Source of the DNA: a virus
Virus record (IMG/VR): IMGVR_UViG_3300045973_000434
Span: 1 to 64,000 of that record
Direction: 5' to 3' (one strand)
Length of the DNA: 64,000 nucleotides
This document shows, piece after piece, positions 6,063-64,000 of this stretch. The notes below the pieces were generated by a model. That model worked only from the letters and a program-made list of their open reading frames with translations, was not told the origin of the DNA and did no database searches. Position 1 is the first letter of the stretch, and every line of letters begins with the position of its first letter. The position numbers were made by a program, and so were the translations under genes.

Positions 6063-6437
6063 TTATACTTTATTACTTATCCTTACTTGTGTGTAATATC
6101 TACATCTAAATGAATTATATAAATGTAGTCTGCACATTTGATTAGTGCAAGAGTAACATAATGATTGTTCATCCATCTTTCTAACAGGCATTTCTTCTAT
6201 ATATGATATTGGTTCTGATTTAATACCATTATATTTAGTGATTGCTAAATGTAGTTCATCACTTGTATAGACTGTCTTATTATGTTTCTGAACAAAGTAT
6301 GATGTGTGAGTAGTCACTGAAAATCGTTTAACAGTTATTGTATGTTTAACAAATAATCGTTTATGATCTTCAGAAGAACTAGCAAGTAACACTGTTGTAT
6401 CACCTGCTAGTTGTTGTGCTAAGATTATATGTGCCAT
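6063..6437 (-). CDS. hypothetical protein (124 aa)
   Basis: ATG ORF; its start overlaps the stop of the upstream gene by 1 nt. Confidence 0.55.
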   Translation of the reverse strand: MAHIILAQQLAGDTTVLLASSSEDHKRLFVKHTITVKRFSVTTHTSYFVQKHNKTVYTSDELHLAITKYNGIKSEPISYIEEMPVRKMDEQSLCYSCTNQMCRLHLYNSFRCRYYTQVRISNKV

Positions 6438-6676
6438 TATTGTCTGGACATATCACATTTCTTCATTAAACCAGTTGCTAACCATATTGTCTTCTCTGGT
6501 TCAGTTGCATTGGTGAATGATATTACTTCAACCTTGATTAGTTTACAAGGCATAATAACATTTAATTGTCCTTTTACAACATTTGCTTTTTGACTGAGCA
6601 TATCACATGCTTTAATAAAACTATTCTGTTCACCACTACTGATAGTAATGAACAATGATCCTTTAATACTTTTCAT
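6437..6676 (-). CDS. hypothetical protein (79 aa)
   Basis: ATG ORF preceded by the conserved leader AATTCAACTGGAA. Confidence 0.5.
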   Translation of the reverse strand: MKSIKGSLFITISSGEQNSFIKACDMLSQKANVVKGQLNVIMPCKLIKVEVISFTNATEPEKTIWLATGLMKKCDMSRQ

Positions 6677-6693
6677 TTTCCAGTTGAATTAGT

Positions 6694-7113
6694 TTATATT
6701 ATTTTAAATTGATATTTTCCTTCTATTATTTTTGTTTCAATGTTAGGATTATCTTTTATCCAATTCCATGCAGCTATTCTAGCATCTTCTTTACTATTTA
6801 ATTGATATGCTTTAGCTTTTAATCTAGCTTCGATTAATATACGTGTTGCAAGTTTCTTTGATGGTGGTTTTTTACTTACCCATTCAATAGAATATTTATT
6901 ATGTCCTTCACCTGTTATTCTTTGAACATCAATTATATTCCATTCTTTTAGAATAATACTGATTTCAGGTATGTAAAACATTTTAAATCTTTTAGCAAGT
7001 GTACTAAAACCAACATTTATCTTTGTGTTTAGATAAGTGGCTTTGTGTATAAAGATCATAAATTGTAACAATCTCCATACATTTTCTTGTTCTTTGGTTT
7101 TGATTGTTTTCAT
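6694..7113 (-). CDS. hypothetical protein (139 aa)
   Basis: ATG ORF with an ATGA overlap to the upstream small ORF. Confidence 0.55.
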   Translation of the reverse strand: MKTIKTKEQENVWRLLQFMIFIHKATYLNTKINVGFSTLAKRFKMFYIPEISIILKEWNIIDVQRITGEGHNKYSIEWVSKKPPSKKLATRILIEARLKAKAYQLNSKEDARIAAWNWIKDNPNIETKIIEGKYQFKII

Positions 7114-47100: not shown

Positions 47101-48023
47101 AATTAGTACTTGGTACAGGTGGTGTATTAGACAGATATGATTATATATCTCAAAGAGTAGGTTGTAAAGATAAGTTTACTGTAGTTAGTTCTATTGTTGG
47201 TGTGTATTGGTTTGATAGGTTATCTAAGTCTTTATATAAACATGGTAATAATCTATCTAACTTAACTAAGACAAAGTATATACAGTCTTATATGACTACT
47301 ACATTAGATAATGAATATGTAGCTATAGCTCATTCAGATACTAGTAATGATGAAATATTATTCACTTTCTTTAAGGAAAATGAAACAAATGGCTTCACTA
47401 TTTCGTTTAATGAACCAATAGATGCCTTTGTGTCATTCTATGGTTTTGTTCCTACAATCTACATACCTTATCAACATCATTACTTGACAACAACAAATAG
47501 TTACTACAGCGATAGTGATGTAAATAGAAACTACCTATTCCTACATGATAGCAATCTAGGGGATAGGTGTTATTTTTATGCACTGGCTGACGGACAAGCT
47601 ACAAAGTATGTTGATTCTACTTTAGAACTTTTGTTTAATTCTGAGTATGAGTATGTAAAGGTGTTTGATAGTATTTTCTATACTTCTAATGCTTTCTCAA
47701 ATCAAGCTGAGATATATTCAAATACTTTTAAAACAGTACAGTGTTATAATGATTTTCAAAACACCGGTGAAGTTGATTTAATACATAAACGTAATATAGA
47801 ACGTAGGGAAAGAGAATGGACGTTTAATGTACCTAGGAATATAGTTAATTCTAGTGTAAGTAATAATCCAAACATATTCCTTGATGTAGATAAGACTCAA
47901 TTATTCAAGGAACGAATGAGAGACAGATACTTAATTGTATATTTAACATATCATAACGATGGTTCATACGATAGGTTTATTGTTTCTAACATAGGTTTAA
48001 AATATAGGGCTAGCATAAGATAA
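44190..48023 (+). CDS. large tail structural protein (1277 aa)
   Basis: Long ORF with beta-rich composition in the tail block just upstream of the ejection-protein candidates, which is where crAss-like phages encode large tail-barrel/muzzle-type proteins. Confidence 0.6.
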   Translation: MTKAVINSFTDAMNKDIDKALMSNKAYLDAQNFRMVTTKGKSTGALETIKGNKLINVNTIVAGQFIIGSCEVRDTLVLFTTNNTSTTPNGGRSMIYSMKVNLETEVGTTPVVLYDDQNNNNSGYLNFSVAHPIKTIGKYETPNIQKVYWTDGYNNLRYVDIAKKLTITGLPYTTDDYMSVLKFEFLPEFASSKPVLVDIVSGSLRSGMVQYAYQLYRLNGAETAISPVSDLIHIVSDNDFATTTLNYKGDSESKETGKGCKLLINNSNGGYNRIRLIRVHYPTLNSIPTISICNESEISTAAGSVYITDTGNVLGDLTIDEFNIASTELFKCQDIASKDNRLFAANITKSEFTIGNTWDARAVRFRSLDNTAYVFDTPYSATGQVVINNTLSNWISSYDLDHNGINGFNDPDNDDNANYQFKYQANGSTVGAEGLNVKIDFETEAVLLDNSNSYTTFSTTSTASSYTNFASPWRDGSLSWQRDEVYRLFVVWQNAIGQTSEPQWIIDLRMPSLHDADFTNSSSANVQPSILGDLVTLSNEVYISVLRPRIYFKSKPTGAVSCQIYRVKRDRSDRSVITQGLVVPTKANGGRLYPDQADVVIPSSDSINLIKLVSPEINITRNVSKRNNDYIEFATYFATGLLTNDSVGPLGAYHRRIDKLVENTRVPYTGNVKSNITEILSVSPATEDSATSGVTIDSKSYCNFNQDGSHTYSKGCSGMLISYSNNNWFGEGNPFVIVNYRSNIANSQYGGSTYEDRSINVSIPCSDVITNINTWYSIKGGDTFINYFDVSTLLVDLSRTQLSSSVSETVFVPLESSINCDLRHDTSNAHASYAISVAVMRQEYLGTHQVVFDTNPGTLTMTYEQDKDLYLYNTVYSQETMVQNAIAFGIDTVLETEFDTMIKVSAIKTNGEMSDSWSKFGINDFLEVDSTYGPINALHLFNNSLYYWQDRAVGIASVNERSLINDKSSAQLVLGTGGVLDRYDYISQRVGCKDKFTVVSSIVGVYWFDRLSKSLYKHGNNLSNLTKTKYIQSYMTTTLDNEYVAIAHSDTSNDEILFTFFKENETNGFTISFNEPIDAFVSFYGFVPTIYIPYQHHYLTTTNSYYSDSDVNRNYLFLHDSNLGDRCYFYALADGQATKYVDSTLELLFNSEYEYVKVFDSIFYTSNAFSNQAEIYSNTFKTVQCYNDFQNTGEVDLIHKRNIERREREWTFNVPRNIVNSSVSNNPNIFLDVDKTQLFKERMRDRYLIVYLTYHNDGSYDRFIVSNIGLKYRASIR

Positions 48024-48643
48024 TGGCAATTAAGATTAAAAAAGGAAACGTTGGTAAGTTTACAGCTTACAAGAAACGCACAGGTAATACTACATCACAA
48101 GCACTTCATTCGAAGAATGCTCATGTTAGGAAGATGGCTAACTTTGCACGTAATGCAAAGAAGTGGAAACATGAAGATGGTGGTTTAGTACAATATGAAC
48201 TAGGTGGTACACTATCATCATTAGGTTCTGTAGCAAGTACAATACCAACACCATGGACACAAATAGGCGGGGCTGCTTTATCTATGATAGGTGGCATAGT
48301 TGCGGGTAACGAACAAAAGAAAGCTGCTGCTGAACAACTTAGGCAACAGAGTGTACAACAAGCCGGTTTAGCGCAAGCTAACGTTATAAATCCATTTACT
48401 CCTACTTTTGCAAATGGTGGTGTGATACCAGGTATGATGCCAAACGTAGAAGTTGAAGGTGGTGAAGTATTACAAGGTACAGATGGTACTTTAGCTTCGG
48501 TTAAAGGACCTAAACATTCAAAAGGTGGTGTAGACTTGTTTATGGAGAATGGTGGTAGAGTATTTAGTGATAAGATAATAAATCCAGAAACTGGTAGGAC
48601 ATTTGCAGAAGATGCAGAACGATTAATGAAACAAACAAAGTAA
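48023..48643 (+). CDS. virion/ejection protein candidate (206 aa)
   Basis: ATG ORF with a TAATG junction, a basic N-terminus and a Gly-rich body. Confidence 0.5.
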   Translation: MAIKIKKGNVGKFTAYKKRTGNTTSQALHSKNAHVRKMANFARNAKKWKHEDGGLVQYELGGTLSSLGSVASTIPTPWTQIGGAALSMIGGIVAGNEQKKAAAEQLRQQSVQQAGLAQANVINPFTPTFANGGVIPGMMPNVEVEGGEVLQGTDGTLASVKGPKHSKGGVDLFMENGGRVFSDKIINPETGRTFAEDAERLMKQTK

Positions 48644-50037
48644 TGGCAACATTAATAGAAAAAAATACAAAGAAATTAGTTGAGCACAAATTAAACATGT
48701 TGTTTGCTAAACAGCAGCAACTTAATAATAATGCAGGTGGTCAACAGAAAATGGAAGGTGGGGGTACCAGTAGGATTAATGGTAGACCTGGTACTTATAA
48801 TAGTCAGGGGATTCCACTTGAATTACCTAACGTTGGTGTTACTGGTTATCGTAATAGGTTTCCACAATATACCGGTATGGGTATAGATTTTATGAGAAAT
48901 AATTATAACTCAAATATTAATCCAGCTTTACTAGGTAATGTAAATATAACAGGTACTAATAATAGAACGGCTGATCCAAACGCTCAGAATATACATAGTG
49001 CAGGCGAAGCTCAAGTAGTTGGTAAACAACCATCTCCTAGTGATTTTTGGGATAACACTGGATTAAATCCATATAATTTTTATAATAACAAACAAGCTTC
49101 TAGTTCTGCACCAGTTAATATGGCAACAGATCCTAGGTTTGGTACTAATTTTAGTAATGTACCAGAAGCTACTTCTAATGCTAAATTATTAAAACAACCT
49201 AGCGATCCTTCGTTAATTCCAAATGCACCCGGTATACAAGATTTAGGTTTTGATCCAGCTATGAATATGGCTACTGATCCTCAATTTGGTAGTTTTGAAC
49301 AGTCGTTAGAAGCATATTCTCCTGCTGTTCCATCATTATCAAGTTTGAATAACACTTCACCGAACTCAAAACTAGGCACTAATGGCTTAGCTAAAGCACC
49401 TACTCCTGGAGGTTCGTCTGGTCCTAACTGGGGTAAGGTTGGTACATTTGCAGCTCAGATGGCACCGATGCTTTATAATTTAGGTAAAGGTTTACAGAAA
49501 CCAGATAAGGTAAAACCAAATTATAATCCATACGAAAGTAAGGTTAGGTCATTGATGGCTAATCGTAGATTTAATATCGATCCATTGCTTAATGCTAATC
49601 TAAATGCACAAGCAGTTTCTAATAGAAACATACGTAACACTGCTAATAGTAGGGGAGAATTAATGGGTAACTTAGGTGCTGCACAGAACTATAGAATGGC
49701 AGGCGATGCTGCTGCTTGGTCACAGAAGAATAACATGGACAATCAGTACATGGCTGAACAGGCTCAGATGGATGCTAACTTAGGTGGTAATAGAGCGCAG
49801 ATGGATTGGAATACTCAAACAGCTAATGCACAGAACAAAGCTGCTACTAATCAATTCTTAGGTCAATCTATGAATGACTTTAGTAAGTTTTCACAGATGC
49901 AACAGTTAATGGGCAATCAGAAAAACAGAGATGCACAACTTGCAAGTTTGTATCCAGACATGTACTCACAAATATATCAATTCCAACCTGCAATGCAAGC
50001 AATAATTAAAGCTGCAGGGAATATGAAAGGTATTTAA
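48643..50037 (+). CDS. Asn/Gln/Pro/Gly-rich low-complexity virion protein candidate (464 aa)
   Basis: ATG ORF with a TAATG junction. MATDP(R/Q)FG occurs twice. Confidence 0.5.
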   Translation: MATLIEKNTKKLVEHKLNMLFAKQQQLNNNAGGQQKMEGGGTSRINGRPGTYNSQGIPLELPNVGVTGYRNRFPQYTGMGIDFMRNNYNSNINPALLGNVNITGTNNRTADPNAQNIHSAGEAQVVGKQPSPSDFWDNTGLNPYNFYNNKQASSSAPVNMATDPRFGTNFSNVPEATSNAKLLKQPSDPSLIPNAPGIQDLGFDPAMNMATDPQFGSFEQSLEAYSPAVPSLSSLNNTSPNSKLGTNGLAKAPTPGGSSGPNWGKVGTFAAQMAPMLYNLGKGLQKPDKVKPNYNPYESKVRSLMANRRFNIDPLLNANLNAQAVSNRNIRNTANSRGELMGNLGAAQNYRMAGDAAAWSQKNNMDNQYMAEQAQMDANLGGNRAQMDWNTQTANAQNKAATNQFLGQSMNDFSKFSQMQQLMGNQKNRDAQLASLYPDMYSQIYQFQPAMQAIIKAAGNMKGI

Positions 50038-50042
50038 TAATT

Positions 50043-52391
50043 ATGGCAAATAGATTTGAACAACCAATAGAGTCCCAGTTTATAAACACCTACGTTCCAA
50101 TTCCTTTCGAGGAAATGATGAAGGCTGGGCAAATGAAACAAAGTAAATATGATCAGACTGCTGCTGCTATAGATAGCAATATCCAAAGAGCAGAAAGTAT
50201 TGATGCTATACCAAACTCACCTGACGATGCTTATAAAAAGCAAGTAGTACAGAAAATGTATGATATTCGTGATCAGTATGTTGGTAAAGACTTATCTGAT
50301 CCTTTTGTTTATAGGCAAATGAACAATGATATAAACAAAGGAATAGATAAAGACTGGGTACAGAAAATGCAACAGAGTAAGATGGCTTGGGATGAAACTC
50401 AAAAAGCTAAACGTACTCTTGATATGCAAGGTAAGTGGAATTCGTCTTTAGATAGTGATCCAGGTAATAAATGGAATTCAAAAGATGCAGGTGTGTATAA
50501 TCATACTCCACATGCATTTGAAGATAAAGCTAGTTTATTTAGACCTTACTATCAAGATTTGAAACCTGAAAGTCAAGGTATTATAGATGTTAATGGTTAT
50601 GCTGTACAACGTGATGCTATTACTTCTGGTAAAGTATCTGCTGTAGCTAAACAAGGCGCACAAGAATTAGCATCTACTCCTCAAGGACAAGATCATATTA
50701 ACTTATATAAACAAGCACATAAAGATACAAAACTTACAGATGTTGAAATACTTCAACAGGAGATGAATGATTATGGTAAGAACTGGGTTATGTCTAATGA
50801 TCAAGTATTAGGCGCTTCTTTACAAAAAGGTAGGAAAGGTGGTAATTCAGATAATGGTGCAATAGATAGTGAATGGTTTGTTGCTAAAGGAGCAGTTCCT
50901 GTAAGTGGTCAAAATACAGATCGTAAAGCACTTGCTGCAGTAGATAAGGAAAATGAAGTTAATAAGGCTTCTTTAAACGGGGTGGATGCAACTTTAAAAG
51001 AACTAGAAAATAAAAAAGTACCAACTACTGATATACGATATAAAACAGCACTGCAACAAAAAGAAAAATTAACAAATGATATAAGTAAGTACGAAGAAAG
51101 TATGGCTCAAGTAAATCAAAATACTGAAATAGCCATGCAGAAAAAGATAGAAGAACTTAAAACTAACATGGTTCCAACTTTAGCAAAAGCATTAGGAATG
51201 GATGAAAACGATCCTACTATAAGAACTCTTTTAGATGAACATTTAAACAAACAATTTGGAAAAGGTTTTAGAGAACTTGGAGATCTTACTGGATCTACTG
51301 TTACTAAAGGATTAGCTAATAGTGCTTCAATGATACCTGGGATTGCAGGAATGATTATCAATAAAGCACATAGATTTAAAAATATGCTTGGTATAATGTC
51401 TGATAAAGATAACCAAAGATTATTAGATTCTGTTGATAAAGCAATAACAGATACTGGAATAACTGAAAACTCTGGTTTTGCAGAAAGAACTAGTGCTGGT
51501 TGGAAAGCTTTACATAACTATGTAAAAGATTCTAGAGTTGGTTGGGGAAGTTCTGTAAAGAAAAGTATAACAGATAATAGTTTTCTAGTTAAAATGCGTG
51601 ATTTTGATAAACAAATAAACACATTAGAGAATAATAGAGATCAAGTTAGAAACGAAGAAAAAGCTGCTATATTTAATTATAATGTTTCTGATATGATGGT
51701 TAAACCATTAAACTATACTACTAAGCAAGGTAGAGTATCAATAATAGCAGAAGATGGTACTGAATATGATTCTCAGATAAATGATTTTTATACAGCTCTT
51801 AAAATTAATCCTAGTTCGTTTGATATAGCAGATGTGTCAGAAGGTAATAAATTAACAACAGGTACAAAGAAATTTAACCAAGAGGTTCAAGGTATTATGG
51901 CTTCATATGAACCACTACCAGGTATGATAATACCTAAAATAGATAAAGATGGTAATATGAAAGTATTAGTTTCTTATCAAGTAGATGGTAAAAATAACAC
52001 TAAAGCTGGTATAAAGAAGTTTGAGGTTAAAGTAAAAGATGATCATATAATAAATGCTTTTGCAAATGATTATAAAGCATCAGGGTATACAAACTCTTAT
52101 TTACGTTTAGTTAATAGAAAACTACATCAAGACGTTGAAACATACGCAAATTCTAAACAAGAACATGATTACCCAATTATGGTTCCTAATAAAAAAGGTG
52201 GTGTAGATGAAGCTAGTATTACAGGTAAAAGAATAGGTTCAGAATATGTAGCAATTGATCCAGATACAAATAATGTATTAACAGAAAGATCTTCCGATGG
52301 AACAACAAGAGAAGTGAGATTTAACACAAAAGAAGAATTTGAAAATTGGTTATATGCCAAACAGCATTTTCTTCTCACAGGAAAAAATTAA
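50043..52391 (+). CDS. virion/ejection protein candidate (782 aa)
   Basis: ATG ORF, charged and helical, directly upstream of the giant ORF and in the same frame. Confidence 0.55.
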   Translation: MANRFEQPIESQFINTYVPIPFEEMMKAGQMKQSKYDQTAAAIDSNIQRAESIDAIPNSPDDAYKKQVVQKMYDIRDQYVGKDLSDPFVYRQMNNDINKGIDKDWVQKMQQSKMAWDETQKAKRTLDMQGKWNSSLDSDPGNKWNSKDAGVYNHTPHAFEDKASLFRPYYQDLKPESQGIIDVNGYAVQRDAITSGKVSAVAKQGAQELASTPQGQDHINLYKQAHKDTKLTDVEILQQEMNDYGKNWVMSNDQVLGASLQKGRKGGNSDNGAIDSEWFVAKGAVPVSGQNTDRKALAAVDKENEVNKASLNGVDATLKELENKKVPTTDIRYKTALQQKEKLTNDISKYEESMAQVNQNTEIAMQKKIEELKTNMVPTLAKALGMDENDPTIRTLLDEHLNKQFGKGFRELGDLTGSTVTKGLANSASMIPGIAGMIINKAHRFKNMLGIMSDKDNQRLLDSVDKAITDTGITENSGFAERTSAGWKALHNYVKDSRVGWGSSVKKSITDNSFLVKMRDFDKQINTLENNRDQVRNEEKAAIFNYNVSDMMVKPLNYTTKQGRVSIIAEDGTEYDSQINDFYTALKINPSSFDIADVSEGNKLTTGTKKFNQEVQGIMASYEPLPGMIIPKIDKDGNMKVLVSYQVDGKNNTKAGIKKFEVKVKDDHIINAFANDYKASGYTNSYLRLVNRKLHQDVETYANSKQEHDYPIMVPNKKGGVDEASITGKRIGSEYVAIDPDTNNVLTERSSDGTTREVRFNTKEEFENWLYAKQHFLLTGKN

Positions 52392-52412
52392 TTAGTTTAT
52401 TTAACATACTTT

Positions 52413-55400
52413 ATGTTTGAACAAAACATGGATGGTGTTACTCCAGTTAGGAGATTGACATCACAAGACATAAGTAGCCCTTTAGGTGCTACAGAAACAG
52501 TAAGTCCAGAAACTGGATTAACAGGGGATAGCAAATCAGCAAGAAGACTAAGTAGTAAAGAACTTAGTGAAGGATTCATGAGTGATACTGGTGGCATATC
52601 CCCTATTATTTCTAATACCCCTGGTGGTATTAAGAGTACTGAAAAAATTATTGGTGAAGGTGAATATCATCCTGAATTAGGAACTGTTTATAATCAACAG
52701 TTATTACACGAACGACAGACTGCAACAGGTCAGTTTGCAAATGCTTTAATACAAGCTGGTGCTCAAATAGTTGGGCAAAGTATACAAGGTGCAGCTTATA
52801 TAGCTGATATTGACTCTGGTGCTAGATTATCAAATGATGCTGAGGCAGATTTTGGTAATGCGGTTGCTGATTTTGGTTCCAAGATAATTCAAGGAGCTGA
52901 AGAGTTAGCACCTATATATGTTGACCCATATAAGGAAGGTAAATTCGATCCAGGATCATGGTCTTGGTGGATGAAAAATCTACCATCTGCTGCATCTAGT
53001 GTTGCACTTATGATACCTGCTTTGGGTGCTACATCATTAGTGGAGATGTTACCTGGGGTATCTAAATTACTTGCTGGTTTAAGTCAAGAAGGAGTTGTTG
53101 CTGCAAGAGGCTTTACACAAGCTATATTCTCTAGAAAAGCAGAGAGTATGATGGAAGCAGAAGGTGTTTATAAAGAAAATTATCAGAGAGGTAGACAATC
53201 TGGTTTATCAGAAATTGATGCAAGAAAAGCAGCATCATTAGCTGCATCAAACACATATAATAAAAACTGGGCATTATTAGTTCAAGATATACCTCAGTAT
53301 ATGTTGTTAAATAAATTAGGGGCTTTAGCTAAAGGTGGTAAAGCAGGTGAAAAGATAGCTGCCGAAGAAATGCATCCTAAGATTGCAAACTGGATGGGTA
53401 AAGGACAACTTGAAACTACATTAGGTAAAGTTGGTGCAATTGCTACAGATATGGCTGGTGAAGCTGGTGAAGAGATTTATCAGTACTTACTTAATGAACA
53501 GTCTAATACAATGGCTGCACATCAAGCTGATCCTGATAAGAATAAAACAAGTAGTCTATTACAAACATTAAAAGATCATTATGATGACGGTGATCTTTGG
53601 ACCTCTGGTTTTTGGGGAGCTGCTGGTGCTGGTATAATGCAAGCTGGGTTTGCTGGAATGAATCATAAAGCTTTACAAAAAGCTGCTAATGAGCAGTTAG
53701 ATACTGTTACTAAATTTAGCACAGGTTTAAATCAGGCTAATAAAGAATATGCAGCTGCTCTTGCAGAAGGTGATCCTATTAAAGCCGAACAAGCTTTTCC
53801 ATCTCTTATATTCAATACAACATTAAGAAGTCATTTAAACGGTTCTCTTAAGTATACAAGAGAGATGCTTAATGAACTATCTAAAGGAACTTCTCCAGAA
53901 CTATATGCTAAATGGGGTATTGATCCAGAAACACAAGGTAGATTAAAAGACGATCCTGATTTCTTTAAAAAGATTAAAGATGGTATGGATAGGGTTGTAG
54001 AACTCTACGACAGGTATGGTAAAGAGAATAGAAGTAATAAAAATATTAAGGATAAAGATAAAGAGCCTAATGCTCAGATAATGGCTAATACTCAATTCTT
54101 AATGGAGAACACTGAAAAGAGTATTCCTACTATTGAGAAGAGAAGAGACGAGGCTTGGGGTAAAATAGAGAAGGTTGAAGAGTTATCTGCTCCTAAGCAA
54201 GCTATCTTAGGTCTTGAAGCTAGGAACCGTGCATCACAGAAGTTGTTAGATCATTTTGATAAGACTTTGAAAGAGCGTGGTGATAAGATGGGTGAAGTTG
54301 AAAAGAAAGAATTAGAACTTGCTATTGAAGAAACAAAACTTGATATAGTAAAGACTAATAGTAATGACGATCCTACTAAACCTGGTATTAAACAATATCA
54401 AGCTGAATTAAGAAAGATACATAAAGATGATTTTGAACAAGCTGATAAAGATAATACACCATTACCTGAAGATCAAATAGATGCTTTTAGAAAAGAAGTT
54501 GGTAGGTTAAAAGCTGCTAATGAATCTATGAAACAGTTAACCGCACGTATGAAAAAACTACGTGAAGGTAAATCTGTATTAGATCTTCAGAAAGAAGAAG
54601 TAATGGATCAGTTGGGTATCAAACCTGACGAACGGGATGAAGACGCAATACAACCTGATGATACTGTACAGTTCAAAGATGAAACTGGTGCAGACCAATA
54701 TGGTAAAGTGGTTGGTGTAGAAGAAGCTTTAGATGAAAATGATACATCAGATCCTAAATACGTAGTTCAACCAGTTGATCCTAAAACACATGAACCAGTT
54801 GGGGAACCGGTGGTTAAAGGTGCTTTAGATTTATTCTTAGATGAGAAAGTAGATGATAGGATTAATGAAGAGATTGCTCCTGATGGTTTAACTGATGTAG
54901 AACAAGTTCAGTTAGATGGCATAACAGAAGAAGAGTCTTTAATAGAGTCTGGTCAAAAAGTAATGCAAGGAGTATCTAAACTATCTTATTCTGATTTTGA
55001 TTCTAAAACCGGTATATATAATAATAGAAACTCTGAGTTCTCTAAAGTTATAAGTGATCCTAATACTAGTTTCACTGGTTCAAAAGCTTATTTCTTTTTA
55101 AGCGATGCTGTAAAGTTACAACCATTCGTTGACAAATATGCAACAGCAAAACAGAAACCAATCTTTAAAAAGTTCTTAGATGGTAAGAAGTTAACTGATC
55201 CTGAAATTGATATCTTAGTTGAGGCAATATCTGGTGATAAGTTTAATGACTTAGTTGATATGTTACCAATATCTGTAAGAGCTACAATAGCTGGTAAAAC
55301 ATTTGAAGAAGGTTTATATTTACATAGTTCTGGTTTTAAATACATTGCTATACCTAAATCAATTCGTAGAGGTAAGAAAGCGGCCATTGATGCATATCGT

Positions 55401-58400
55401 GCAAAGGAGTATTTGAAGTCTAGGGAGAATAGGGCAGTCCTACTTAAGAAGTTATTCAAAAGAGAAGAGATATACTCTATAGGTTTAAATAGGAGTAGAG
55501 GTGTTCCTAATGTTGCTAATAAAACATTACCTGCAAAGGAAAGAAATAGAAAGTTAACTGCAGCACTTGGCAAAGAAGCTAGTAAACTTAAGCTAGCAAT
55601 AACTGTATCAGATGAGGTTAGTCCTGACAAAGCTTCATTGCGTGATGCTAAGGATAATGTAATACCTGGTACTGAAAGAATAATGAATAACCCTGGTAAT
55701 GTATTTGCTATGGTTATTAATGAGACTATGGATGGTAGTGCATATCCACTTAAACTTAATCGACCTTTCATAAGTAGAGAGCATGCTGAGATATTATTTG
55801 ATGCTTTTGTAATTGTTGGTAGAGCTAAGATTGCTAAACGTAAGAATGGCAAACCGGTAAATGCTTACAATGTAAAGTTTACTGCTGAGGATGATAGAGT
55901 TAAAGGTTTATCTGCTGGTGAAGTTATAGACTTACTTGTTAACAACGGTAGGGAGATGACTGAGCCAAACACCGGTCGTTTTAAGAAACGTAACATCAAA
56001 CCAGGTCAAGCAGAGATAATGGCTAGCAAGCGATTATACGTTGGTATATCTGGTAAACGTGTTGTATTGGTATATGGTAATGATCCTAAAACCGGTGCAG
56101 CAAATACTATAGACTTAACAAGCAGTGCTGACATACATCAAAATAAAGAAGCATTTTTACAGTGGCTTACTACTAATAAAAGGTATGCGATCTACTTGAG
56201 TAGTAAGAAATTAAAACTGTCCTTAAATGGTGATTTCTTAAATAAGAAAACATTTACTATAGGTAAGACCAATACTATTTCAAGGAAAGGTACTGATTCA
56301 TATAGTAAGTTTATTATAGACAATCAGTTAGTTGAAACTGATATAGTTAGGGATGATAATGGTAAATTGTTTCATGATCCTGTTATAAATTTAAATATAA
56401 CAGATAGGTATGGTAAGGTTACAGACCAAACTATTAAAACAAAAGCACAATCTAAGTATACTCCTAAGACTCATAAAGTTGTAAGGGAGAAGCCAACGGT
56501 ACAAGATGTTCCTGTAACTAAACCTGAGATAACTATAGATGATGTAGAGGACGCAAGGGCGTTCAATTCTACTCAGACTGTTGAACAGATTGAAGAAGAG
56601 AAACATGGTCAAGATGTTCCTGTAGAAGAAGAAACTGCTTACAAAAATAAGTTTTCTACTTCTAAAGAAAGAGCTGTTTATCATGGTGGTTCAGAGTATG
56701 CTGCACCTGAAGCTAAACAAGTGTTTATAGACTTATCAAATATAATAGAGACTGCTATAAACGCTAAGAAAACGTTTGATGAAACCTCTGCTGAAGTTAA
56801 AAAGTTCTTGTACACAGAACAACTTAAAGTAGGTTCAAAAGGGTCTTTAGCTAATAAGATATTATTTGAGTACCTTAAAGATAGGTTTGCTGGTAAGACA
56901 CAACGTTCTTTATTAGAAGAATATAAATATGGTATATCAAAACAAGATACTTCTAGTGCTACTAAAACTACACCAGCTATTAATTCTAATGATGAAATAG
57001 GTGAAGTAGAAGAAGATAATGAAATAGTAAAAGCAGAAGAAACTGCTCCTATTTTAGAAGGGGGTAATCAAGAAGAAGAACCTACTGAAATACCAAAGGT
57101 AAGAAGTCTCAATGATATAATGGGGAATTTTACTAAGAAGAGTGGTAATAAGCTAAGCAAAGTTGCTAATTCTGAAAATGGTTATGAGATTGCTGATGTA
57201 CATAAAGACATACAGTGGGCATATGATACAGTTGGTATATCAAAAGAAGATTGGGTTATAAAGAATAAGTTTGCAGATCTACTATATAAAGGTAGACGTA
57301 ATTTTGCTTTGTATAGTCAATCGGCTATATTAATACTAGAACAAGCTGAGGTAGGTACAGTGTTTCACGAAGCTTTTCATAGAGTTAGTTTAGGTTATTT
57401 CACTAAAGCAGAACGTAGTAAGTTATATAGGGCTGCAAGACAGATATATAAACTTGGCGTAGATACTCATACTGATAAGCAGGTAGAAGAGTTTTTAGCT
57501 GAGAAATTTGAAAATTATGTATTAACCAATGGTACTAGAAAAGTACCTGGTGCTATAGAAAGATTCTTTCAACCATTATTAAACTTCATAAAGAAGATAT
57601 TTGGTGGTACAAAGTTAGATGAGAATGAAGTAGAGCAGTTATTCAGACAGATTAACGAAGGTAAATTTAAACGTAATAAAGTATTAGCTGAGAATAGAGA
57701 CTTACTTGAACAAGGTGAGTATGCTAAGACTATGATTTCTGGTACTACTTTTGATAACTTAAATACTAGAGAAGATGTGAAAGACTTGATCAAAGGTCTT
57801 ACTGAAAAACTATTTGATGTTAGTAACGTAGCTGATATAAATAGGATCAGTAGGCTTAATCATGGTTTATTAGTATCTTCTATAGAAGAATTGATATCCA
57901 ATCTTACCGATCATATAAATGAGGAAGGTGTTGCTGAAGATGAGGTGATACAAACTACACATCTTAGGGATATGTTCTCAGAGGTTCTAGGTGTTAAAGA
58001 TCCTGAAACTGGTTTATATGATACTTATTCTAGGTTGATTAGACCTCAAATAGATTCCTTTATGTTATCTATGGGTATCAAACAAACAGGTATAAAAGAA
58101 GCTTCTGATGACTATCTAATGGACGAAGAAGGAGACGAAGGTGCTGCTACTGAAAAACAATTTGGTGAGAATGTTGGTAAAATAGGTGGTGATTATTTCA
58201 AAGCTTCTTATGAACGTAATAAGAAAGAAACAGCTCTTGCAAATATAAAGTTTATGATAGCTACCTTACATGAAGTTAGTTATGTAGATCAAGAAACAGG
58301 TGAAAGAGAATTTGAACGTAATCCATTAACACGCATGGGTAAGTTTGTAGATTTTGGTACTGCTTGGTCTAAGATATTCAATTCATTATACTGGATTAAT

Positions 58401-61400
58401 AATTCAGCTGATATGATTGAAGAACTTAAAGTATTAGCAGAACAACAAAATTATTCTCCATTTGCTGAGTTAGCAGAACGTCTTGAGAATGCATCAGAGA
58501 TGGTACGTAATCAGTTCTTTGTAACAGTTAGGTCATCTAAACATGATTTTATTAACTTCTCTGCTTATAATACAGGTGGTTTTGGTTATAAGTTTACTAT
58601 AAATAAATCAGCTTTTAATGAAGCATTCTTCTCTGAGGTATCTGTTTGGAACGAACTTATGTTCAATGATGATAAGATAACAAGGAGTGAAGTAACTAAG
58701 ATAAAAGGACAGACTGGTTATATATACCGTAGTTATTTTAGGAAAGAGTTTTTTACTGCTATTGGTGAAGACTATTCTGACTTACTAGATAGTATATTAG
58801 TTGCTAAAGATAAACTTGGTTATGTCAAACCTTCTGAGAAAGAAGCTTTCATAAACAAAGAAGTGTCTAAAGCAGTAGATCAGATATTATTCTTATTAGG
58901 TAGGTTTAATATAGTAGTTGATACTCAAACAATAAATCGTTTAATAAAACAGAAACAAGGTGAAACTGTAGAGAATGATTTAGATGCTGTATATAACTAT
59001 GTAGATACTAGATTATCTATGTTGATGGCTACCAATACGTCTGCACATGCTGCTGAACAAGAGGAACAGATCAATCGTAAGACCATGAGTTTATATAGGA
59101 ACGAAGAAGTTCTTAATATATCTAGAGCTTATATATTAGAGCATCCTGAAAAGATAGATGATATGCAGCTTGGTCCAGACAAGAATAAATATAACACCTT
59201 CTCTGAAAACAACCATGCTACTGAAGTTGCTAATAGAATACAACACGAACCTGGTTTTGTAGAAAATAAAAGAAGTCTTATCTATAACAAACGTAGTCGT
59301 TTATTAAACGACATGATTCCTAAATCTAACGATCCTGAAGAAATAAAAAGAGCAGAAGATAAAAGGAAGATGTTTGGTTTGAGAACCTTTAGTTATCTAC
59401 AAGAGAAAAACACCGGTGATAATGGTCGTGGGTTCTTAGAGATAACAGAATTAGAAGATTACTTAATAAAGTATTCTGCTATGTTTAATCTAACTAACAC
59501 AGACGAATCAGAACAGTTGTTACCATTACCTTCTCTTCCTAGAAAGACATATTTCTTTATGTCAGGAGTAAGGAAGTTTGATAGAGTTATGGCAGACTTT
59601 AAAGGTGGTAAGATTAAGTTTACTAAAGAAGTTCTAGATTATTTCTATGATCAATATTTAGATGAACTCGAACGTATACAAGAAGCTAATAGAGTGTTAG
59701 CAGAATATCACGCAGCTACTGGCCAAGAGAAAGAAGATCTTAAAAACAAGTTAGTAAAGAACTATCACTACGCAACTAATAAGTTTGACTTTAGTAAAGG
59801 TAATGCTTTTGATTTTATTCATTTTAAAGGGTTTAGTAAAACTAAAATGGGTAAGATTAACTTCGATAAGAAAATAACAGATGTTTTAAATAGTAGAGTT
59901 AAAGAAGAGTTAGAGTATGCAAATAGAGTTGGTATCATATCATATGACACTGATAGTAAAGAGTATGCTCCTGGTATGTTAGATAGGACTCACACAGAAG
60001 AATATTCTACTAAGTTTGATGAGAGTGATGATATAGGTACTAGAGGAGCTATTGCAGACTTTGTACTTAACTATTCTATGGCTACAATTGAAGCTGAGAA
60101 ACTATTCTTAGCAGACCCTGCTTTCTTTGCTAGAAACCAAGAGAGTAATGAGGTATTTGATGATATATATAAAAGATGGTTTGGGGTAGGTTCTTCAGGT
60201 GAGAACTTTGCAGAAACTACAGAATCAGATCCAAGTACAACATATAGGACTTTAGTAATAAATACACAGAAGTTTCAAGCACCTTTCTATGATGTTCTAT
60301 ATGATAGACATGTGGAATTATGGAAAGCATACTTAACCGAAAACAATAAAGAACAACTCACAGCTGATAAGATTGATGCTATGGCTAAGAAATTAGCTAA
60401 GAACAGATTGTCAGAATATGAGAAAGTAGATCCTTCTGATGGTCAGGCTTGGATTAGTCCTACCATGTATAAGAAGATGATTGAAAGAAGTGGTATGTGG
60501 ACTCCAGAGTTACAAGCTGCTTTTGAAGTACTTAACTCAGATAAAGAGTTGTCTCCTGCAGAAGAAATAAAACTATTAAGTGTTGTTTTAAATCCACAGA
60601 AAACTGCTTACTTTGGTACACAAGAGAACATGGGACTTGATATGCCGATATATGATAAGATGTCTATGACCATTCTCTTTAAGAGATTAGTTAAAGGCAC
60701 TCATATAGAAGATATCTTAGATCGTATGGAACTTACGGGTAGGTATGCCGATATGGAAGGATTAGAAAAAATAGATGTAATCAACTTCGATAGTGCTATT
60801 AAGGTCGGTGGTAGGAGAGGTTATGAATTGTTTACTGATAAGGATAAGAGAGATCAGATAAACGATTTTACAAATGTTTCTACTACAGAACAGTACTGGA
60901 AGAACTTACGTAAACAGCAGGTTACAGATCCACACGATGATTTCACAGAACAGACGTTGGGTTCACAGGTTTATAAAATAGCTAGTTCTAATATTATAAA
61001 AGACAAACCATATGGTAATTACTCAACCGGTATGGATATGCTTAACGCTCTTACAAGATCAAGAGTAGCTGTAAGTAACAACGGTCGTCATAATATAGAG
61101 GCTTCGTTAGGTATTAAAGATGGTAAAATATCAAACGCTAAGTTAATTCAACTACTTAGAAAAGATGCTGAGAAAGCTAAGAAGCCAGAAGACTTTATGA
61201 GGTCTCTTAAAATAGACCCTAAGACAGGTAGAAACTATCTTGAACTAGATGCATTTCCTGATAGGAGATGGATATACTCCAGACTTATGAGATTGGTTAC
61301 TGGTAACACAGTTGACTTAGTAACACCTGGAGCACAGTTAATACAATCATCAGACTATGGTTTTTCAAAGAAAGATTATGATAGTGAATTAGGTTTTAAC

Positions 61401-64000
61401 ATACTTGAACAAGGTTCTAGTACTACCTATCAGATGGAATGTAAGGTTTCTATTAGGACGTTTAAACATCTAATACCTAATTATGAAAAACTAACTCATG
61501 ACCAAAGAGTTAAAGCATTGGCTGGTTTAGAACTATCTTTGTTAGGTTATCGTATTCCTACACAGGGACAAAACTCTGTAGTTAGTTTAACTATAAAAGA
61601 GTTCTTACAAGACGAAGCTGGTGATGTTATTCATCTTCCGTTAGCGTTTACAACATTAACAGGATCTGACTTTGACATAGATAAACTATTTACTATGTTT
61701 CATAACTATGAAAGAAATGAAAAAGGTAAGTGGGAAAGGGTTATGTTTAGTGAAGGTACTAACGAAGAGGCTGTACAACAGAGGTATGATAAAAAAGTAG
61801 AGGAGCTGTATAACATCTATAAAAATGATGAAAGTGTTGTAACCCCTGCTGTCTTTGAAAAACTAAAAAGTGTTGGTGCTACTGCTTCTAGATATATGAC
61901 TGATTCTGATTTTGCTGAAACTATTTCTTTAATAGCAGAAGAGGATAAAGCTAGGATGGCTAATTATAGAGGTCAGTATATACAGACTGAACAACATTAT
62001 AATGAAGCTACAGAAACTATTGAAAAGAAAGAACTTTATAGTGAACTTACGTATTTATCTGATCTTATGGATGACATAAGACAAAAGAATCAAATTAAGA
62101 ATGTAATACGTGAAAAAGCAATTCCTATAAAGAAGGCAGCGTTGTTGGCTGCTAAGAAGATACAAGACATTAGTGAGTTTGCTAATCTTCCAATAGAAGA
62201 ACAGAATATAAGTGCTGCTAATAAGAATAGAATCATAGATGTATTTCATACTGTTATACGTGATAGTAAGCATTATTTAAGTACTTCTCAGCCATTGGGT
62301 GGTGTAACAAACCAGCTAAGAGCAAGAGCTGCTAGGAATGAACGAATTGAAAACGGTGGTAAAGTAAAATCTTTAGACGCATTAGGTTCAACAGTTCCTA
62401 GGTTTCAATCAGAAACTAAGTTTAAATTCATGACATCTTCTAAAGGTATCGGTCCTTTTGCTTTGAACAACGCACACCATTCCTTTACACAGATGGTTGG
62501 CTTAAAAATGAAAACTAAGGTTCAGTATGGTATGCAAAAGAACGGTGTTGTTCCATTGGATTTAATAATAGGGGATGATAAAGTTTATATAACTGACTGG
62601 TTATCTGCTATGATAGATGCACACGTCGATGCTGTAAAAGACAACTATATAACAAAACTTAACGTCAACAACTCTACTTATGGTGTAGTTGCTTTGATGT
62701 TACGATTAGGTCTTGGTATTAAAACATTTGACTTTGTTTCTCAGCCTGCTATAAAAGAGTATGCTAGAGAATACTTTAGGTTGGGTGGTAGATTAAAACA
62801 AGATGAAGATTCAGCTGATGATGGTACTATTGCAGATGCAGCTTTTAGAGTGGTGTGGAATAGGTATATGACTAAACTTCATTTAGATGAAGGAGAGGAT
62901 GTAAATTTAAAGGATGATGATATGTACCTAGACTTTACTGATCTTATAAACGATGAGAAGCAGATGGAGAAAGACATGGACCCAGCACTAAGTAATAACG
63001 AAGATAGGAATAAAAGACAGTTAAATATGTTATTACACTTCAGAAGGATATTCAAAGATTCTGAAGATCTTAACAAACTTGTTCTTGAATGTCGTGTTGA
63101 TACTAAGAAGATTGGTGCTACTCCTAGTGAACAAAGATTTGCTTTAAACAAACTAATGGAATTAGAAGAAAAGGGTAAATTTCCAGGACTTGATAGGCTT
63201 ATAAACAGTAGAGGTGAGTTTATGCAAAATGGTACAATGTTAGCACCTATGTTAAAGAACAGCCTTATATACTTACAAGGAATGCTTGAGAATAGTACTG
63301 TGTACGGTTCTAAGGGATTTGATACATTATTTTGGGATATGGCTTTCTCTATACCTGCTAGTGCAACTATGAGAGCTTCTAGTGTGAATAATATAGTAGA
63401 AGAAATGTTTAGTTATTTTTCAGGTGAATTCTTTGGTAATCCAGAACATGGTATTGGTGTTAACAAAGCATACTTAGAGAAATTATTATTAAATGGTCCT
63501 ACTTCTGTCTTTGGATTACTTTATAAAATACGTAAAAAGAATTACAAACTATATGAAGAACTTAGTAAGAATAAAATGCTTTCTAGTCTACGTGTAGATA
63601 GTAAACCAGGTATTCCACTTGAAACATATTTAAGGGTCCCCCCTTCATTTACAGCAAATAAATGGGACAACGATGATAAGATAGACGGGTTCTATGATTT
63701 ATTTACTCATCCAGAATCTGAAGTTAGAGAATTAGCCAGAGCTTTATATTTATACTCTTATTATAGTACTGGTTTTAGACATAGGTTCCGTGGTTATGTT
63801 AAGCATATACCAGGTTCAGTACAGAAAGAAATAAATATGTTCAACGTTAAAACTAAAAAATATAATAAAGTTAGTTTTAATGAGTATCTTTATAACTTAG
63901 TTAGAGAATTGAATGACGGTCATAGTGCAGGTCCTAAGTACTTACAATCTATGAAACGTGATATATTTAAGAATAACTGGTTTAATAAATGGTTTGTACC
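52413..64000 (+). CDS. giant multidomain virion protein containing a zincin-like HExxH domain and a two-barrel RNA polymerase module (at least 3862 codons, 3' end outside window)
   Basis: I translated the frame from the ATG at 52413 codon by codon and met no stop up to 64000. The ORF track lists no plus-strand ORF here, as expected for an ORF with no stop in the window. HEAFH is at 57366-57380. YRIPTQGQNS...VIHLPLAFTTLTGSDFDIDKL is at 61548-61690. Confidence 0.85.
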   Translation, partial: MFEQNMDGVTPVRRLTSQDISSPLGATETVSPETGLTGDSKSARRLSSKELSEGFMSDTGGISPIISNTPGGIKSTEKIIGEGEYHPELGTVYNQQLLHERQTATGQFANALIQAGAQIVGQSIQGAAYIADIDSGARLSNDAEADFGNAVADFGSKIIQGAEELAPIYVDPYKEGKFDPGSWSWWMKNLPSAASSVALMIPALGATSLVEMLPGVSKLLAGLSQEGVVAARGFTQAIFSRKAESMMEAEGVYKENYQRGRQSGLSEIDARKAASLAASNTYNKNWALLVQDIPQYMLLNKLGALAKGGKAGEKIAAEEMHPKIANWMGKGQLETTLGKVGAIATDMAGEAGEEIYQYLLNEQSNTMAAHQADPDKNKTSSLLQTLKDHYDDGDLWTSGFWGAAGAGIMQAGFAGMNHKALQKAANEQLDTVTKFSTGLNQANKEYAAALAEGDPIKAEQAFPSLIFNTTLRSHLNGSLKYTREMLNELSKGTSPELYAKWGIDPETQGRLKDDPDFFKKIKDGMDRVVELYDRYGKENRSNKNIKDKDKEPNAQIMANTQFLMENTEKSIPTIEKRRDEAWGKIEKVEELSAPKQAILGLEARNRASQKLLDHFDKTLKERGDKMGEVEKKELELAIEETKLDIVKTNSNDDPTKPGIKQYQAELRKIHKDDFEQADKDNTPLPEDQIDAFRKEVGRLKAANESMKQLTARMKKLREGKSVLDLQKEEVMDQLGIKPDERDEDAIQPDDTVQFKDETGADQYGKVVGVEEALDENDTSDPKYVVQPVDPKTHEPVGEPVVKGALDLFLDEKVDDRINEEIAPDGLTDVEQVQLDGITEEESLIESGQKVMQGVSKLSYSDFDSKTGIYNNRNSEFSKVISDPNTSFTGSKAYFFLSDAVKLQPFVDKYATAKQKPIFKKFLDGKKLTDPEIDILVEAISGDKFNDLVDMLPISVRATIAGKTFEEGLYLHSSGFKYIAIPKSIRRGKKAAIDAYRAKEYLKSRENRAVLLKKLFKREEIYSIGLNRSRGVPNVANKTLPAKERNRKLTAALGKEASKLKLAITVSDEVSPDKASLRDAKDNVIPGTERIMNNPGNVFAMVINETMDGSAYPLKLNRPFISREHAEILFDAFVIVGRAKIAKRKNGKPVNAYNVKFTAEDDRVKGLSAGEVIDLLVNNGREMTEPNTGRFKKRNIKPGQAEIMASKRLYVGISGKRVVLVYGNDPKTGAANTIDLTSSADIHQNKEAFLQWLTTNKRYAIYLSSKKLKLSLNGDFLNKKTFTIGKTNTISRKGTDSYSKFIIDNQLVETDIVRDDNGKLFHDPVINLNITDRYGKVTDQTIKTKAQSKYTPKTHKVVREKPTVQDVPVTKPEITIDDVEDARAFNSTQTVEQIEEEKHGQDVPVEEETAYKNKFSTSKERAVYHGGSEYAAPEAKQVFIDLSNIIETAINAKKTFDETSAEVKKFLYTEQLKVGSKGSLANKILFEYLKDRFAGKTQRSLLEEYKYGISKQDTSSATKTTPAINSNDEIGEVEEDNEIVKAEETAPILEGGNQEEEPTEIPKVRSLNDIMGNFTKKSGNKLSKVANSENGYEIADVHKDIQWAYDTVGISKEDWVIKNKFADLLYKGRRNFALYSQSAILILEQAEVGTVFHEAFHRVSLGYFTKAERSKLYRAARQIYKLGVDTHTDKQVEEFLAEKFENYVLTNGTRKVPGAIERFFQPLLNFIKKIFGGTKLDENEVEQLFRQINEGKFKRNKVLAENRDLLEQGEYAKTMISGTTFDNLNTREDVKDLIKGLTEKLFDVSNVADINRISRLNHGLLVSSIEELISNLTDHINEEGVAEDEVIQTTHLRDMFSEVLGVKDPETGLYDTYSRLIRPQIDSFMLSMGIKQTGIKEASDDYLMDEEGDEGAATEKQFGENVGKIGGDYFKASYERNKKETALANIKFMIATLHEVSYVDQETGEREFERNPLTRMGKFVDFGTAWSKIFNSLYWINNSADMIEELKVLAEQQNYSPFAELAERLENASEMVRNQFFVTVRSSKHDFINFSAYNTGGFGYKFTINKSAFNEAFFSEVSVWNELMFNDDKITRSEVTKIKGQTGYIYRSYFRKEFFTAIGEDYSDLLDSILVAKDKLGYVKPSEKEAFINKEVSKAVDQILFLLGRFNIVVDTQTINRLIKQKQGETVENDLDAVYNYVDTRLSMLMATNTSAHAAEQEEQINRKTMSLYRNEEVLNISRAYILEHPEKIDDMQLGPDKNKYNTFSENNHATEVANRIQHEPGFVENKRSLIYNKRSRLLNDMIPKSNDPEEIKRAEDKRKMFGLRTFSYLQEKNTGDNGRGFLEITELEDYLIKYSAMFNLTNTDESEQLLPLPSLPRKTYFFMSGVRKFDRVMADFKGGKIKFTKEVLDYFYDQYLDELERIQEANRVLAEYHAATGQEKEDLKNKLVKNYHYATNKFDFSKGNAFDFIHFKGFSKTKMGKINFDKKITDVLNSRVKEELEYANRVGIISYDTDSKEYAPGMLDRTHTEEYSTKFDESDDIGTRGAIADFVLNYSMATIEAEKLFLADPAFFARNQESNEVFDDIYKRWFGVGSSGENFAETTESDPSTTYRTLVINTQKFQAPFYDVLYDRHVELWKAYLTENNKEQLTADKIDAMAKKLAKNRLSEYEKVDPSDGQAWISPTMYKKMIERSGMWTPELQAAFEVLNSDKELSPAEEIKLLSVVLNPQKTAYFGTQENMGLDMPIYDKMSMTILFKRLVKGTHIEDILDRMELTGRYADMEGLEKIDVINFDSAIKVGGRRGYELFTDKDKRDQINDFTNVSTTEQYWKNLRKQQVTDPHDDFTEQTLGSQVYKIASSNIIKDKPYGNYSTGMDMLNALTRSRVAVSNNGRHNIEASLGIKDGKISNAKLIQLLRKDAEKAKKPEDFMRSLKIDPKTGRNYLELDAFPDRRWIYSRLMRLVTGNTVDLVTPGAQLIQSSDYGFSKKDYDSELGFNILEQGSSTTYQMECKVSIRTFKHLIPNYEKLTHDQRVKALAGLELSLLGYRIPTQGQNSVVSLTIKEFLQDEAGDVIHLPLAFTTLTGSDFDIDKLFTMFHNYERNEKGKWERVMFSEGTNEEAVQQRYDKKVEELYNIYKNDESVVTPAVFEKLKSVGATASRYMTDSDFAETISLIAEEDKARMANYRGQYIQTEQHYNEATETIEKKELYSELTYLSDLMDDIRQKNQIKNVIREKAIPIKKAALLAAKKIQDISEFANLPIEEQNISAANKNRIIDVFHTVIRDSKHYLSTSQPLGGVTNQLRARAARNERIENGGKVKSLDALGSTVPRFQSETKFKFMTSSKGIGPFALNNAHHSFTQMVGLKMKTKVQYGMQKNGVVPLDLIIGDDKVYITDWLSAMIDAHVDAVKDNYITKLNVNNSTYGVVALMLRLGLGIKTFDFVSQPAIKEYAREYFRLGGRLKQDEDSADDGTIADAAFRVVWNRYMTKLHLDEGEDVNLKDDDMYLDFTDLINDEKQMEKDMDPALSNNEDRNKRQLNMLLHFRRIFKDSEDLNKLVLECRVDTKKIGATPSEQRFALNKLMELEEKGKFPGLDRLINSRGEFMQNGTMLAPMLKNSLIYLQGMLENSTVYGSKGFDTLFWDMAFSIPASATMRASSVNNIVEEMFSYFSGEFFGNPEHGIGVNKAYLEKLLLNGPTSVFGLLYKIRKKNYKLYEELSKNKMLSSLRVDSKPGIPLETYLRVPPSFTANKWDNDDKIDGFYDLFTHPESEVRELARALYLYSYYSTGFRHRFRGYVKHIPGSVQKEINMFNVKTKKYNKVSFNEYLYNLVRELNDGHSAGPKYLQSMKRDIFKNNWFNKWFV

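Follow-up and report, generated by a model that had tools for sequence, protein, structure and literature searches.

The 64,000-nucleotide stretch of viral DNA analysed here (positions 1 to 64,000 of IMG/VR record IMGVR_UViG_3300045973_000434; hereafter the window) ends in 11.6 kb for which the list of open reading frames (ORFs) gives only antisense entries of 66–254 amino acids (aa) within 52.4–64 kb. Is this end of the window non-coding, is it read with a reassigned stop codon, or does it hold a gene that the list omits? Our analysis indicates that the plus strand of 52413..64000 very probably holds the first ~85% (3862 codons) of a gene of ~4,500 codons that is truncated by the window end and encodes a virion RNA polymerase (RNAP) fusion protein of a crAss-like phage. 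The product would be one chain that runs from an alpha-helical head resembling gp67 of phage phi14:2 through a charged linker, a conserved middle region and a zincin-like HExxH domain to an RNAP module.

The open frame at 52413..64000

Translation of the plus strand of 52413..64000 with genetic code table 11 gave 3862 codons and zero stops. With the per-codon stop probability of 0.079 calculated from the base composition of the window, the chance of an open frame of this length is about 8e-139. Between the in-frame TAA at 52389–52391, which ends an upstream ORF of 782 aa, and the ATG at 52413 there is no other start. The giant ORF is missing from the list because the listing tool omits ORFs that run off the window end. 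GC content (0.32–0.36) and GC skew (about +0.2) are uniform along the gene and match those of the preceding plus strand genes. A first-pass annotation of the window, made from the sequence before any database search, had described this uninterrupted frame of at least 3862 codons from the ATG at 52413, had called it the largest gene and absent from the ORF track, and had held standard code 11 to be sufficient. All of this was borne out, and the in-frame stop that its author feared might have been overlooked was not found by automated translation. Recoding of a stop codon in the giant gene was rejected since the frame contains no in-frame stops. As to stop codon usage elsewhere in the window, 31 of the 34 plus strand ORFs of at least 100 aa in 7770–52391 end in TAA, 3 end in TAG and none ends in TGA.

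The closest homologue that we found (P0002) has 4501 aa and 61% amino acid identity to the window protein. The two are collinear throughout, with residues 1–3862 of the query aligned to residues 1–3829, and the genes share ~68–70% nucleotide identity over most of their length. Since the alignment stops at residue 3829 of 4501, about 672 aa would follow past the window end, giving a full length of ~4,530 aa and a mass of ~500 kDa. P0002 is encoded on a 93.9-kb contig (L008) in which the gene order is as in the window. There, the next gene encodes a 1869-aa homologue of phi14:2 gp65 and cr4_1 gp27 in which a second HExxH occurs, and the coding strand switches after this gene. This collinearity over 3862 aa with an independently assembled gene argues against a chimeric assembly, which the first-pass annotation had also named as a way in which its reading might fail, and the uniform composition argues in the same direction. 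The giant protein is ~26% identical to any protein of a reference phage. Megablast of the giant gene against phage genomes gave no match, and relatives were found by protein-level searches only.

The longest of the antisense ORFs (254 aa, minus strand, 55088..55852) lies inside the giant gene, and we weighed it as a possible nested gene. Its length exceeds that in 99.7% of codon-shuffled controls (mean 135, standard deviation 28). The matching antisense stretch of L008 has at least five stops, and we rejected the candidate. As the ORF is not conserved open in the closest homologous gene, we take it to be a chance ORF and judge it a non-gene.

Domains of the giant protein

The polymerase assignment rests on a module at 58155..63812 (plus strand, as are all features of the giant gene given below). 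A phmmer search against the PDB matched the phi14:2 gp66 virion RNAP (6VR4) with an E-value of 4.6e-41. Residues 1915–1994, 2293–3150 and 3264–3487 of the query align with gp66 residues 222–298, 598–1442 and 1484–1702, respectively, and blastp carries the match on to query residue 3800, which corresponds to gp66 1968. The gp66 stretches 598–1442 and 1484–1702 span the connector, bridge helix and trigger loop. In gp66, the connector (1095–1238) separates the two double-psi beta-barrels (DPBBs) (phi14:2 RNAP preprint), and by sequence alignment alone the match reaches both sides of it. The catalytic motif of gp66 is 1361-DFDID-1365, and its aspartates are essential (phi14:2 RNAP preprint). The window protein has DFDID at the aligned residues 3086–3090 (61668..61682), within the sequence TGSDFDIDK that is identical in the query and in gp66 (1358–1366). 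Further downstream, residues 3264–3487 (62202..62873) align with gp66 1484–1702, a stretch that contains the bridge helix (1529–1559) and the trigger loop (1598–1636) (phi14:2 RNAP preprint).

Upstream of the RNAP module, residues 1592–1812 (57186..57848) were assigned as a zincin-like HExxH domain on conservation and an AlphaFold2 (AF2) model. The HExxH motif itself is H1652-E1653-x-x-H1656 (HEAFH, 57366..57380). We aligned the region with 28 diverse homologues (alignment A1), in which G57, H61, E62, H65, Y81, A105 and F108 are invariant. A nearly invariant Glu, E1693 (57489..57491; E102 in alignment A1), is kept in at least 90% of the sequences within an EExLAExF motif, to which A105 and F108 also belong. 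This residue is a candidate third zinc ligand, predicted to bind the metal. The AF2 model (predicted local distance difference test score, pLDDT, 78.7) has the elements H5–16, E23–26, E41–43, E48–51, H58–71, H74–88 and H97–115 (H, helix; E, strand), with HExxH on helix 58–71 and E1693 on helix 97–115. This order fits the zincin-like core described as an N-terminal helix, a three-stranded sheet, the HExxH helix and a Glu helix (Iyer et al., PMC5512222). A profile of the domain found nothing significant among PDB sequences. Pfam searches with the giant protein and all homologues in the HExxH alignment gave no match to a peptidase family, the only such families to appear being ATLF and Tox-MPTase4, in one member each at E ~0.05. 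On motif and modelled topology, the domain appears to be zincin-like and to lie outside any curated peptidase family.

We also noted that the transcription block of these phages has two different HExxH domains, one upstream of the RNAP and one in the downstream gp65-like protein. The upstream domain is present in the window, in the Suoliviridae and in the Intestiviridae and is absent from phi14:2 gp67. The downstream one is found at residue 245 of phi14:2 gp65 (L007), at residue 342 of cr4_1 gp27 (L001) and at residue 354 of the product of the gene after P0002 (L008 23508–29117).

The N-terminal part begins with a conserved, all-alpha head domain at residues ~60–435 (52590..53717), which is supported by a profile and an AF2 model. 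The profile, built from 36 homologues, matches the N-termini of the Intestiviridae proteins annotated as 'RNAP-associated protein fused to zincin protease' with E ~1e-55. The model (mfb2486669944) is all helical with a pLDDT of 74.5. In BFVD it matches, among others, a structural protein of phi14:2 (TMq 0.53), crAss proteins and the heads of phage polyvalent proteins; the matches to polyvalent proteins, which come from unrelated tailed phages, are for the most part weak (E 1e-4 to 1, TMq 0.2–0.5). Among the names attached to the BFVD entries are 'ART-PolyVal-like domain' (cr271_1), 'RelA/SpoT' and 'Large polyvalent protein associated domain'. Profile searches of the head against Pfam and PDB sequences gave no significant match. 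Foldseek against the PDB returned non-significant matches to helical bundles and membrane proteins with TM below 0.2, which we rejected as evidence. It is the BFVD structure matches that suggest a likeness of the N-terminal part to gp67.

Two helical segments on conserved columns stand out within the head. Residues 182–217 (52956..53063; SWSWWMKNLPSAASSVALMIPALGATSLVEMLPGVS) form a hydrophobic Ser/Ala/Gly-rich segment with a Kyte-Doolittle peak of 1.54 over 19 residues. The family-mean hydrophobicity peaks at the same columns (1.27), and W106, W107, S113 and S116 are invariant (alignment A2). Residues 395–418 (53595..53666; LWTSGFWGAAGAGIMQAGFAGMNH) form a Gly/Ala-rich segment that is less hydrophobic than the first and under the 1.3 cut-off. 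Its motif GE.WT..FGA.GAG is kept across homologues, and G323 and G326 are invariant in alignment A2. The hydrophobic head might lead the chain from the virion or into a membrane, an assignment that we regard as uncertain. The head is followed by a highly charged region at residues ~436–800 (53718..54812); Lys, Arg, Asp and Glu together make up 30% of residues 401–600 and 41% of residues 601–800. Next comes a conserved middle region (residues ~835–1366, 54915..56510) that aligns with several homologues, among them residues 796–1329 of P0016 (E 2e-30), and that gave no match to a Pfam or PHROG family. The first-pass annotation had listed two Gly/Ala-rich hydrophobic segments in the N-terminal ~420 aa, a long charged region, an HExxH domain and an RNAP module in this order, and each of these was recovered.

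Size and architecture among crAss-like phages

Is a fusion of this size exceptional? By its sequence, the window is from a crAss-like (Crassvirales) phage that is nearest to the Suoliviridae. Its proteins match the Pfam families Crass_capsid (E 1e-186), CrAss_Ring_1 (E 6e-83) and crAss_MUZ (E 5e-191) and the PHROG families for terminase, portal and major head protein (E ~1e-126 to 1e-146). The terminase large subunit (TerL) is 50–57% identical to that of Suoliviridae, with lower similarity to other families. A tblastn search with residues 1601–3862 of the giant protein matched 114 phage records, all crAss-like. In four Suoliviridae the match falls within a single annotated gene, of 4491 (cr4_1), 4946 (cr118_1), 4551 (cr1_1) and 4774 aa (cr50_1). 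A gene of 1400–2000 aa comes next in all four.

We then used the RNAP core in an exhaustive HMMER search of representative proteins, which gave 1991 clusters at E ≤0.001; statistics on length and motifs were taken on the best 150 of these. Their median length is 4292 aa and their maximum 6953 aa; 109 reach 3862 aa or more and 22 reach 5000 aa or more. The HExxH domain and DFDxD occur in one chain in 117 of the best 150 clusters, with HExxH intact in 114 of these 117, and the median spacing between the two motifs is 1443 aa, compared with 1434 in the window. Gp65-like sequence is also present in four of the best 150 (P0005, P0016, P0086 and P0141), and in P0016 (6272 aa) and P0086 (6953 aa) all three parts are fused. 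A word-indexed protein search with the same RNAP core returned one weak, irrelevant match, whereas the 1991 clusters from HMMER included one at 70% identity. For proteins of this kind, a negative from the word index is unreliable.

The Suoliviridae provide the closest parallel among reference phages. The giant gene of cr4_1, cr1_1, cr50_1 and cr118_1 likewise encodes an N-terminal part, HExxH and DFDID in one chain, and it lies in the same place, past the muzzle gene and 2–3 cargo genes and before a gp65-like gene of 1400–2000 aa. In cr4_1 gp26 (YP_010112556, 4491 aa), HEAFHRVS is at residue 2002 and DFDID at residue 3433, a spacing of 1431 compared with 1434 in the window protein, which also reads HEAFHRVS. 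The alignment of cr4_1 gp26 covers residues 1556–3838 of the query with 26.6% identity and an E-value of 2e-175. The Suoliviridae proteins differ in that blastp found them to be without similarity to the first ~1550 aa of the window protein. In addition, the cr4_1 orthologue has 38 in-frame table 11 stops, which shows that cr4_1 uses a reassigned stop, whereas the window gene uses the standard code.

Other arrangements of the same parts are known. The gene block of phi14:2 shares with that of the window the order gp67-like, gp66-like and gp65-like, and by alignment the likeness to gp66 extends over the cleft-blocking region, the connector with the sequence on both sides of it where the DPBBs would lie, the TGSDFDIDK stretch, and the segments of bridge helix and trigger loop. 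In phi14:2, however, the parts are three genes (gp67, 1797 aa; gp66, 2180 aa; gp65, 1421 aa), and the sole HExxH is in gp65, whereas the single chain in the window combines a gp67-like part and the RNAP with an additional HExxH domain. In the Intestiviridae (p-crAssphage type, for example CrAssphage ZA and Rudgehvirus jaberico), a homologous head, an HExxH upstream of the RNAP and a chain of more than 4000 aa are again present. Their two proteins are an 'RNAP-associated protein fused to zincin protease' of 1962–2018 aa and an 'RNAP catalytic subunit fused to unknown RNAP subunit' of 4091–4098 aa. The break between genes is thus placed differently: the Intestiviridae have head and HExxH in one protein and RNAP and gp65-like part in the other, whereas the window has head, HExxH and RNAP in one, with the gp65-like protein expected to be separate.

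Similarities in outline extend beyond the crAss-like group. The gp50 virion RNAP of phage N4 (Schitoviridae, ~3500 aa) is also a giant single chain that is packed in the capsid, carries a zincin-like HExxH domain, is ejected through a narrow tail and performs early transcription. Its polymerase fold is unrelated, T7-like single-subunit as against the two-DPBB type predicted for the window protein, and its HExxH is C-terminal to the polymerase. We found no sequence similarity between N4 gp50 and the window protein. Phages also deliver polyvalent proteins together with their DNA. These are large chains of many domains whose commonest hub is a zincin-like metallopeptidase, with processing of the chain and a jump-start of transcription as its predicted tasks (Iyer et al. 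2017, PMC5512222). The architecture in the window is similar in outline, and the head shares the BFVD matches to polyvalent-protein heads given above. The Pfam domains of polyvalent proteins (MPTase-PolyVal and the LPD families) had no sequence match in the window protein or the aligned homologues.

The first-pass annotation had stated correctly that phi14:2 gp66 has about 2200 aa and that the module is split in other crAss-like phages (three genes in phi14:2, two in the Intestiviridae), and had concluded that an unbroken chain longer than 3862 aa would be unusual. That conclusion was not supported. The size and architecture of the fusion are ordinary for crAss-like phages and have already been described: in the literature, RNAP genes of 'up to ~6000 aa' count as a hallmark of these phages, and giant multidomain transcription proteins are a signature of them (PMC7886860). 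We regard it as very improbable that head, HExxH domain and RNAP in a chain of more than 3862 aa represent an unusual, possibly new crAss-like architecture. The short gp66 and the separate gp67 and gp65 genes of phi14:2 would speak for such a view, as would the split between HExxH protein and RNAP protein in the Intestiviridae and the failure of Pfam and PHROG models to match the protein. Against it stand the same fusion in the four annotated Suoliviridae references (4491–4946 aa), its frequency among the best 150 clusters, the 4091–4098-aa RNAP gene of the p-crAssphage type and the published descriptions. Nor are the long Suoliviridae genes likely to be artefacts of annotation, given their collinearity with the uninterrupted frame in the window. 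A second possibility is that the frame runs past ~4,530 aa into a gp65-like part with the second HExxH, to yield a triple fusion of more than 6,000 aa. Such a C-terminal part is carried by P0016 and P0086 and partly by P0005 and P0141, and the stop is not reached by the window end. However, the closest relative stops at 4501 aa and has the 1869-aa gp65-like gene apart, as do all four Suoliviridae references, and we consider a triple fusion improbable here. The chance that the frame is an artefact, either of chimeric assembly or as a non-functional remnant that stayed open by accident, appears negligible. That the window is metagenome-like sequence would speak for an artefact, but an open frame of this length is vanishingly rare by chance and is collinear end to end with the independent assemblies P0002, P0004 and P0005. 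The catalytic and HExxH motifs are moreover intact, the composition is uniform and the gene order is that of the 93.9-kb contig.

Several points weigh against the assignment of the gene as the 5′ part of a virion RNAP fusion. Pfam and PHROG searches with the whole giant protein matched no part of it above noise, and sequence comparison of the N-terminal part with phi14:2 gp67 revealed no direct similarity. In a Foldseek search of the HExxH-domain model against the PDB, the matches were weak and not significant (a Mycobacterium tuberculosis transcriptional regulator, 6D2S/6CYJ, E 0.095; abylysin, E 2.1; PprI, E 3.3). The full length of ~4,530 aa is an extrapolation, with the stop codon lying outside the window, and packaging, cleavage and activity in this phage are predictions. 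With these counted, a virion RNAP fusion gene of ordinary crAss-like architecture is still the assignment that we hold to be very probable. It guards against two mis-annotations: one would call the last 11.6 kb non-coding or recoded, and the other would present the fusion as a new architecture. A divergent, standard-code lineage is also added to the crassviruses. In this lineage, the gene for head, zincin and RNAP can be read without stop reassignment, introns or frameshifts, and it could suit expression or structural work.

Predicted delivery, processing and neighbouring cargo genes

How such a protein would act can be proposed from its relatives. Gp66 of phi14:2 is virion-borne and performs the early transcription, which is rifampicin-resistant (phi14:2 RNAP preprint). 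In crAss001 virions, three RNAP-associated proteins lie in the cargo zone of the capsid, and partial unfolding is needed for passage through the tail. By homology with phi14:2 and crAss001, the window protein would be made late and packed in the capsid as cargo. On infection it would be extruded, partly unfolded, via the portal and tail and would refold in the host. The refolded protein would then transcribe the early genes independently of the host RNAP and in a rifampicin-resistant manner.

The part played by the HExxH domain in such a pathway is less clear. Proposed roles of the zincin domain are activation or cleavage of a polyprotein and digestion of peptidoglycan (Drobysheva et al.), and autoprocessing by such domains has been predicted for polyvalent proteins, including the N4 virion RNAP (Iyer et al., PMC5512222). 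We tentatively propose cleavage of the chain by the zincin domain, a cut that would release or activate the polymerase, with digestion of peptidoglycan or no processing as alternatives. Processing is weakly favoured because related lineages have gene breaks near the HExxH domain. The opposing view, to which we give a somewhat doubtful but serious hearing, is that the domain either has a structural role or is an ejected effector with targets such as peptidoglycan and host proteins, and that the protein remains one uncleaved chain, as proposed for the N4 virion RNAP. The latter retains its HExxH domain in a single ~3500-aa chain, effector roles of zincin-like metallopeptidases in polyvalent proteins are listed by Iyer et al. 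(PMC5512222), and Drobysheva et al. keep both roles possible. On the other hand, the Intestiviridae gene break falls ~210 aa past HExxH. This points to a natural boundary between domains, and cleavage at such a site would recreate the split state. The second HExxH domain in the downstream gp65-like protein also speaks against an uncleaved chain, although for both views the evidence is indirect.

The giant gene stands after the structural block, in an order shared with cr4_1 and L008. It is preceded by the genes for a ring protein (303 aa) and the muzzle (1277 aa) and by ORFs of 206, 464 and 782 aa. These last three ORFs (48023..52391, plus strand) contain no Cys and are predicted to encode small cargo or ejection proteins. 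Their place between the muzzle gene and the giant gene is as in cr4_1, L008 and crAss001, and they are weakly similar to cr4_1 gp24 and gp25. The scarcity of Cys extends over the whole cargo block (48023–63998, plus strand), with 2 Cys in 5314 aa (0.04%), both in the 3862 aa of the giant ORF. Elsewhere in the window, Cys makes up 0.94% of the muzzle protein, 1.0% of TerL and 1.3% of a 1307-aa tail protein. The 150 homologue clusters average 0.11% Cys, and phi14:2 gp65–gp68 have 0–2 Cys each. Depletion of Cys in the cargo block may fit passage of unfolded proteins across the envelope. One could go further and view the head as a general 'leader' module that also occurs in polyvalent proteins injected by unrelated tailed phages and that would guide the chain out via portal and tail or enter the host membrane. 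Together with a zincin and a polymerase it would make a self-delivering, self-processing RNAP, with Cys scarcity as an adaptation to crossing the envelope unfolded. We consider this broader scheme speculative and, on present evidence, unlikely.

Side observations were made on the neighbouring genes. The 744-aa cr4_1 gp24 (L001 6033–8267) corresponds to two adjoining ORFs in the window, of 206 and 464 aa (48023–50037, plus strand). The contig of the closest relative also has two adjoining ORFs (284 and 445 aa; L008 5542–7733) at the gp24 position. One gene in cr4_1 and two in the window and L008 point to fission or fusion among the small cargo genes too. Scans of the window with Rfam and for tRNAs and tandem repeats gave nothing relevant. 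At the other end of the window, the ORFs in 277–7113 are on the minus strand, and both GC skew and AT skew switch sign near 6–8 kb, which marks the boundary of oppositely oriented modules.

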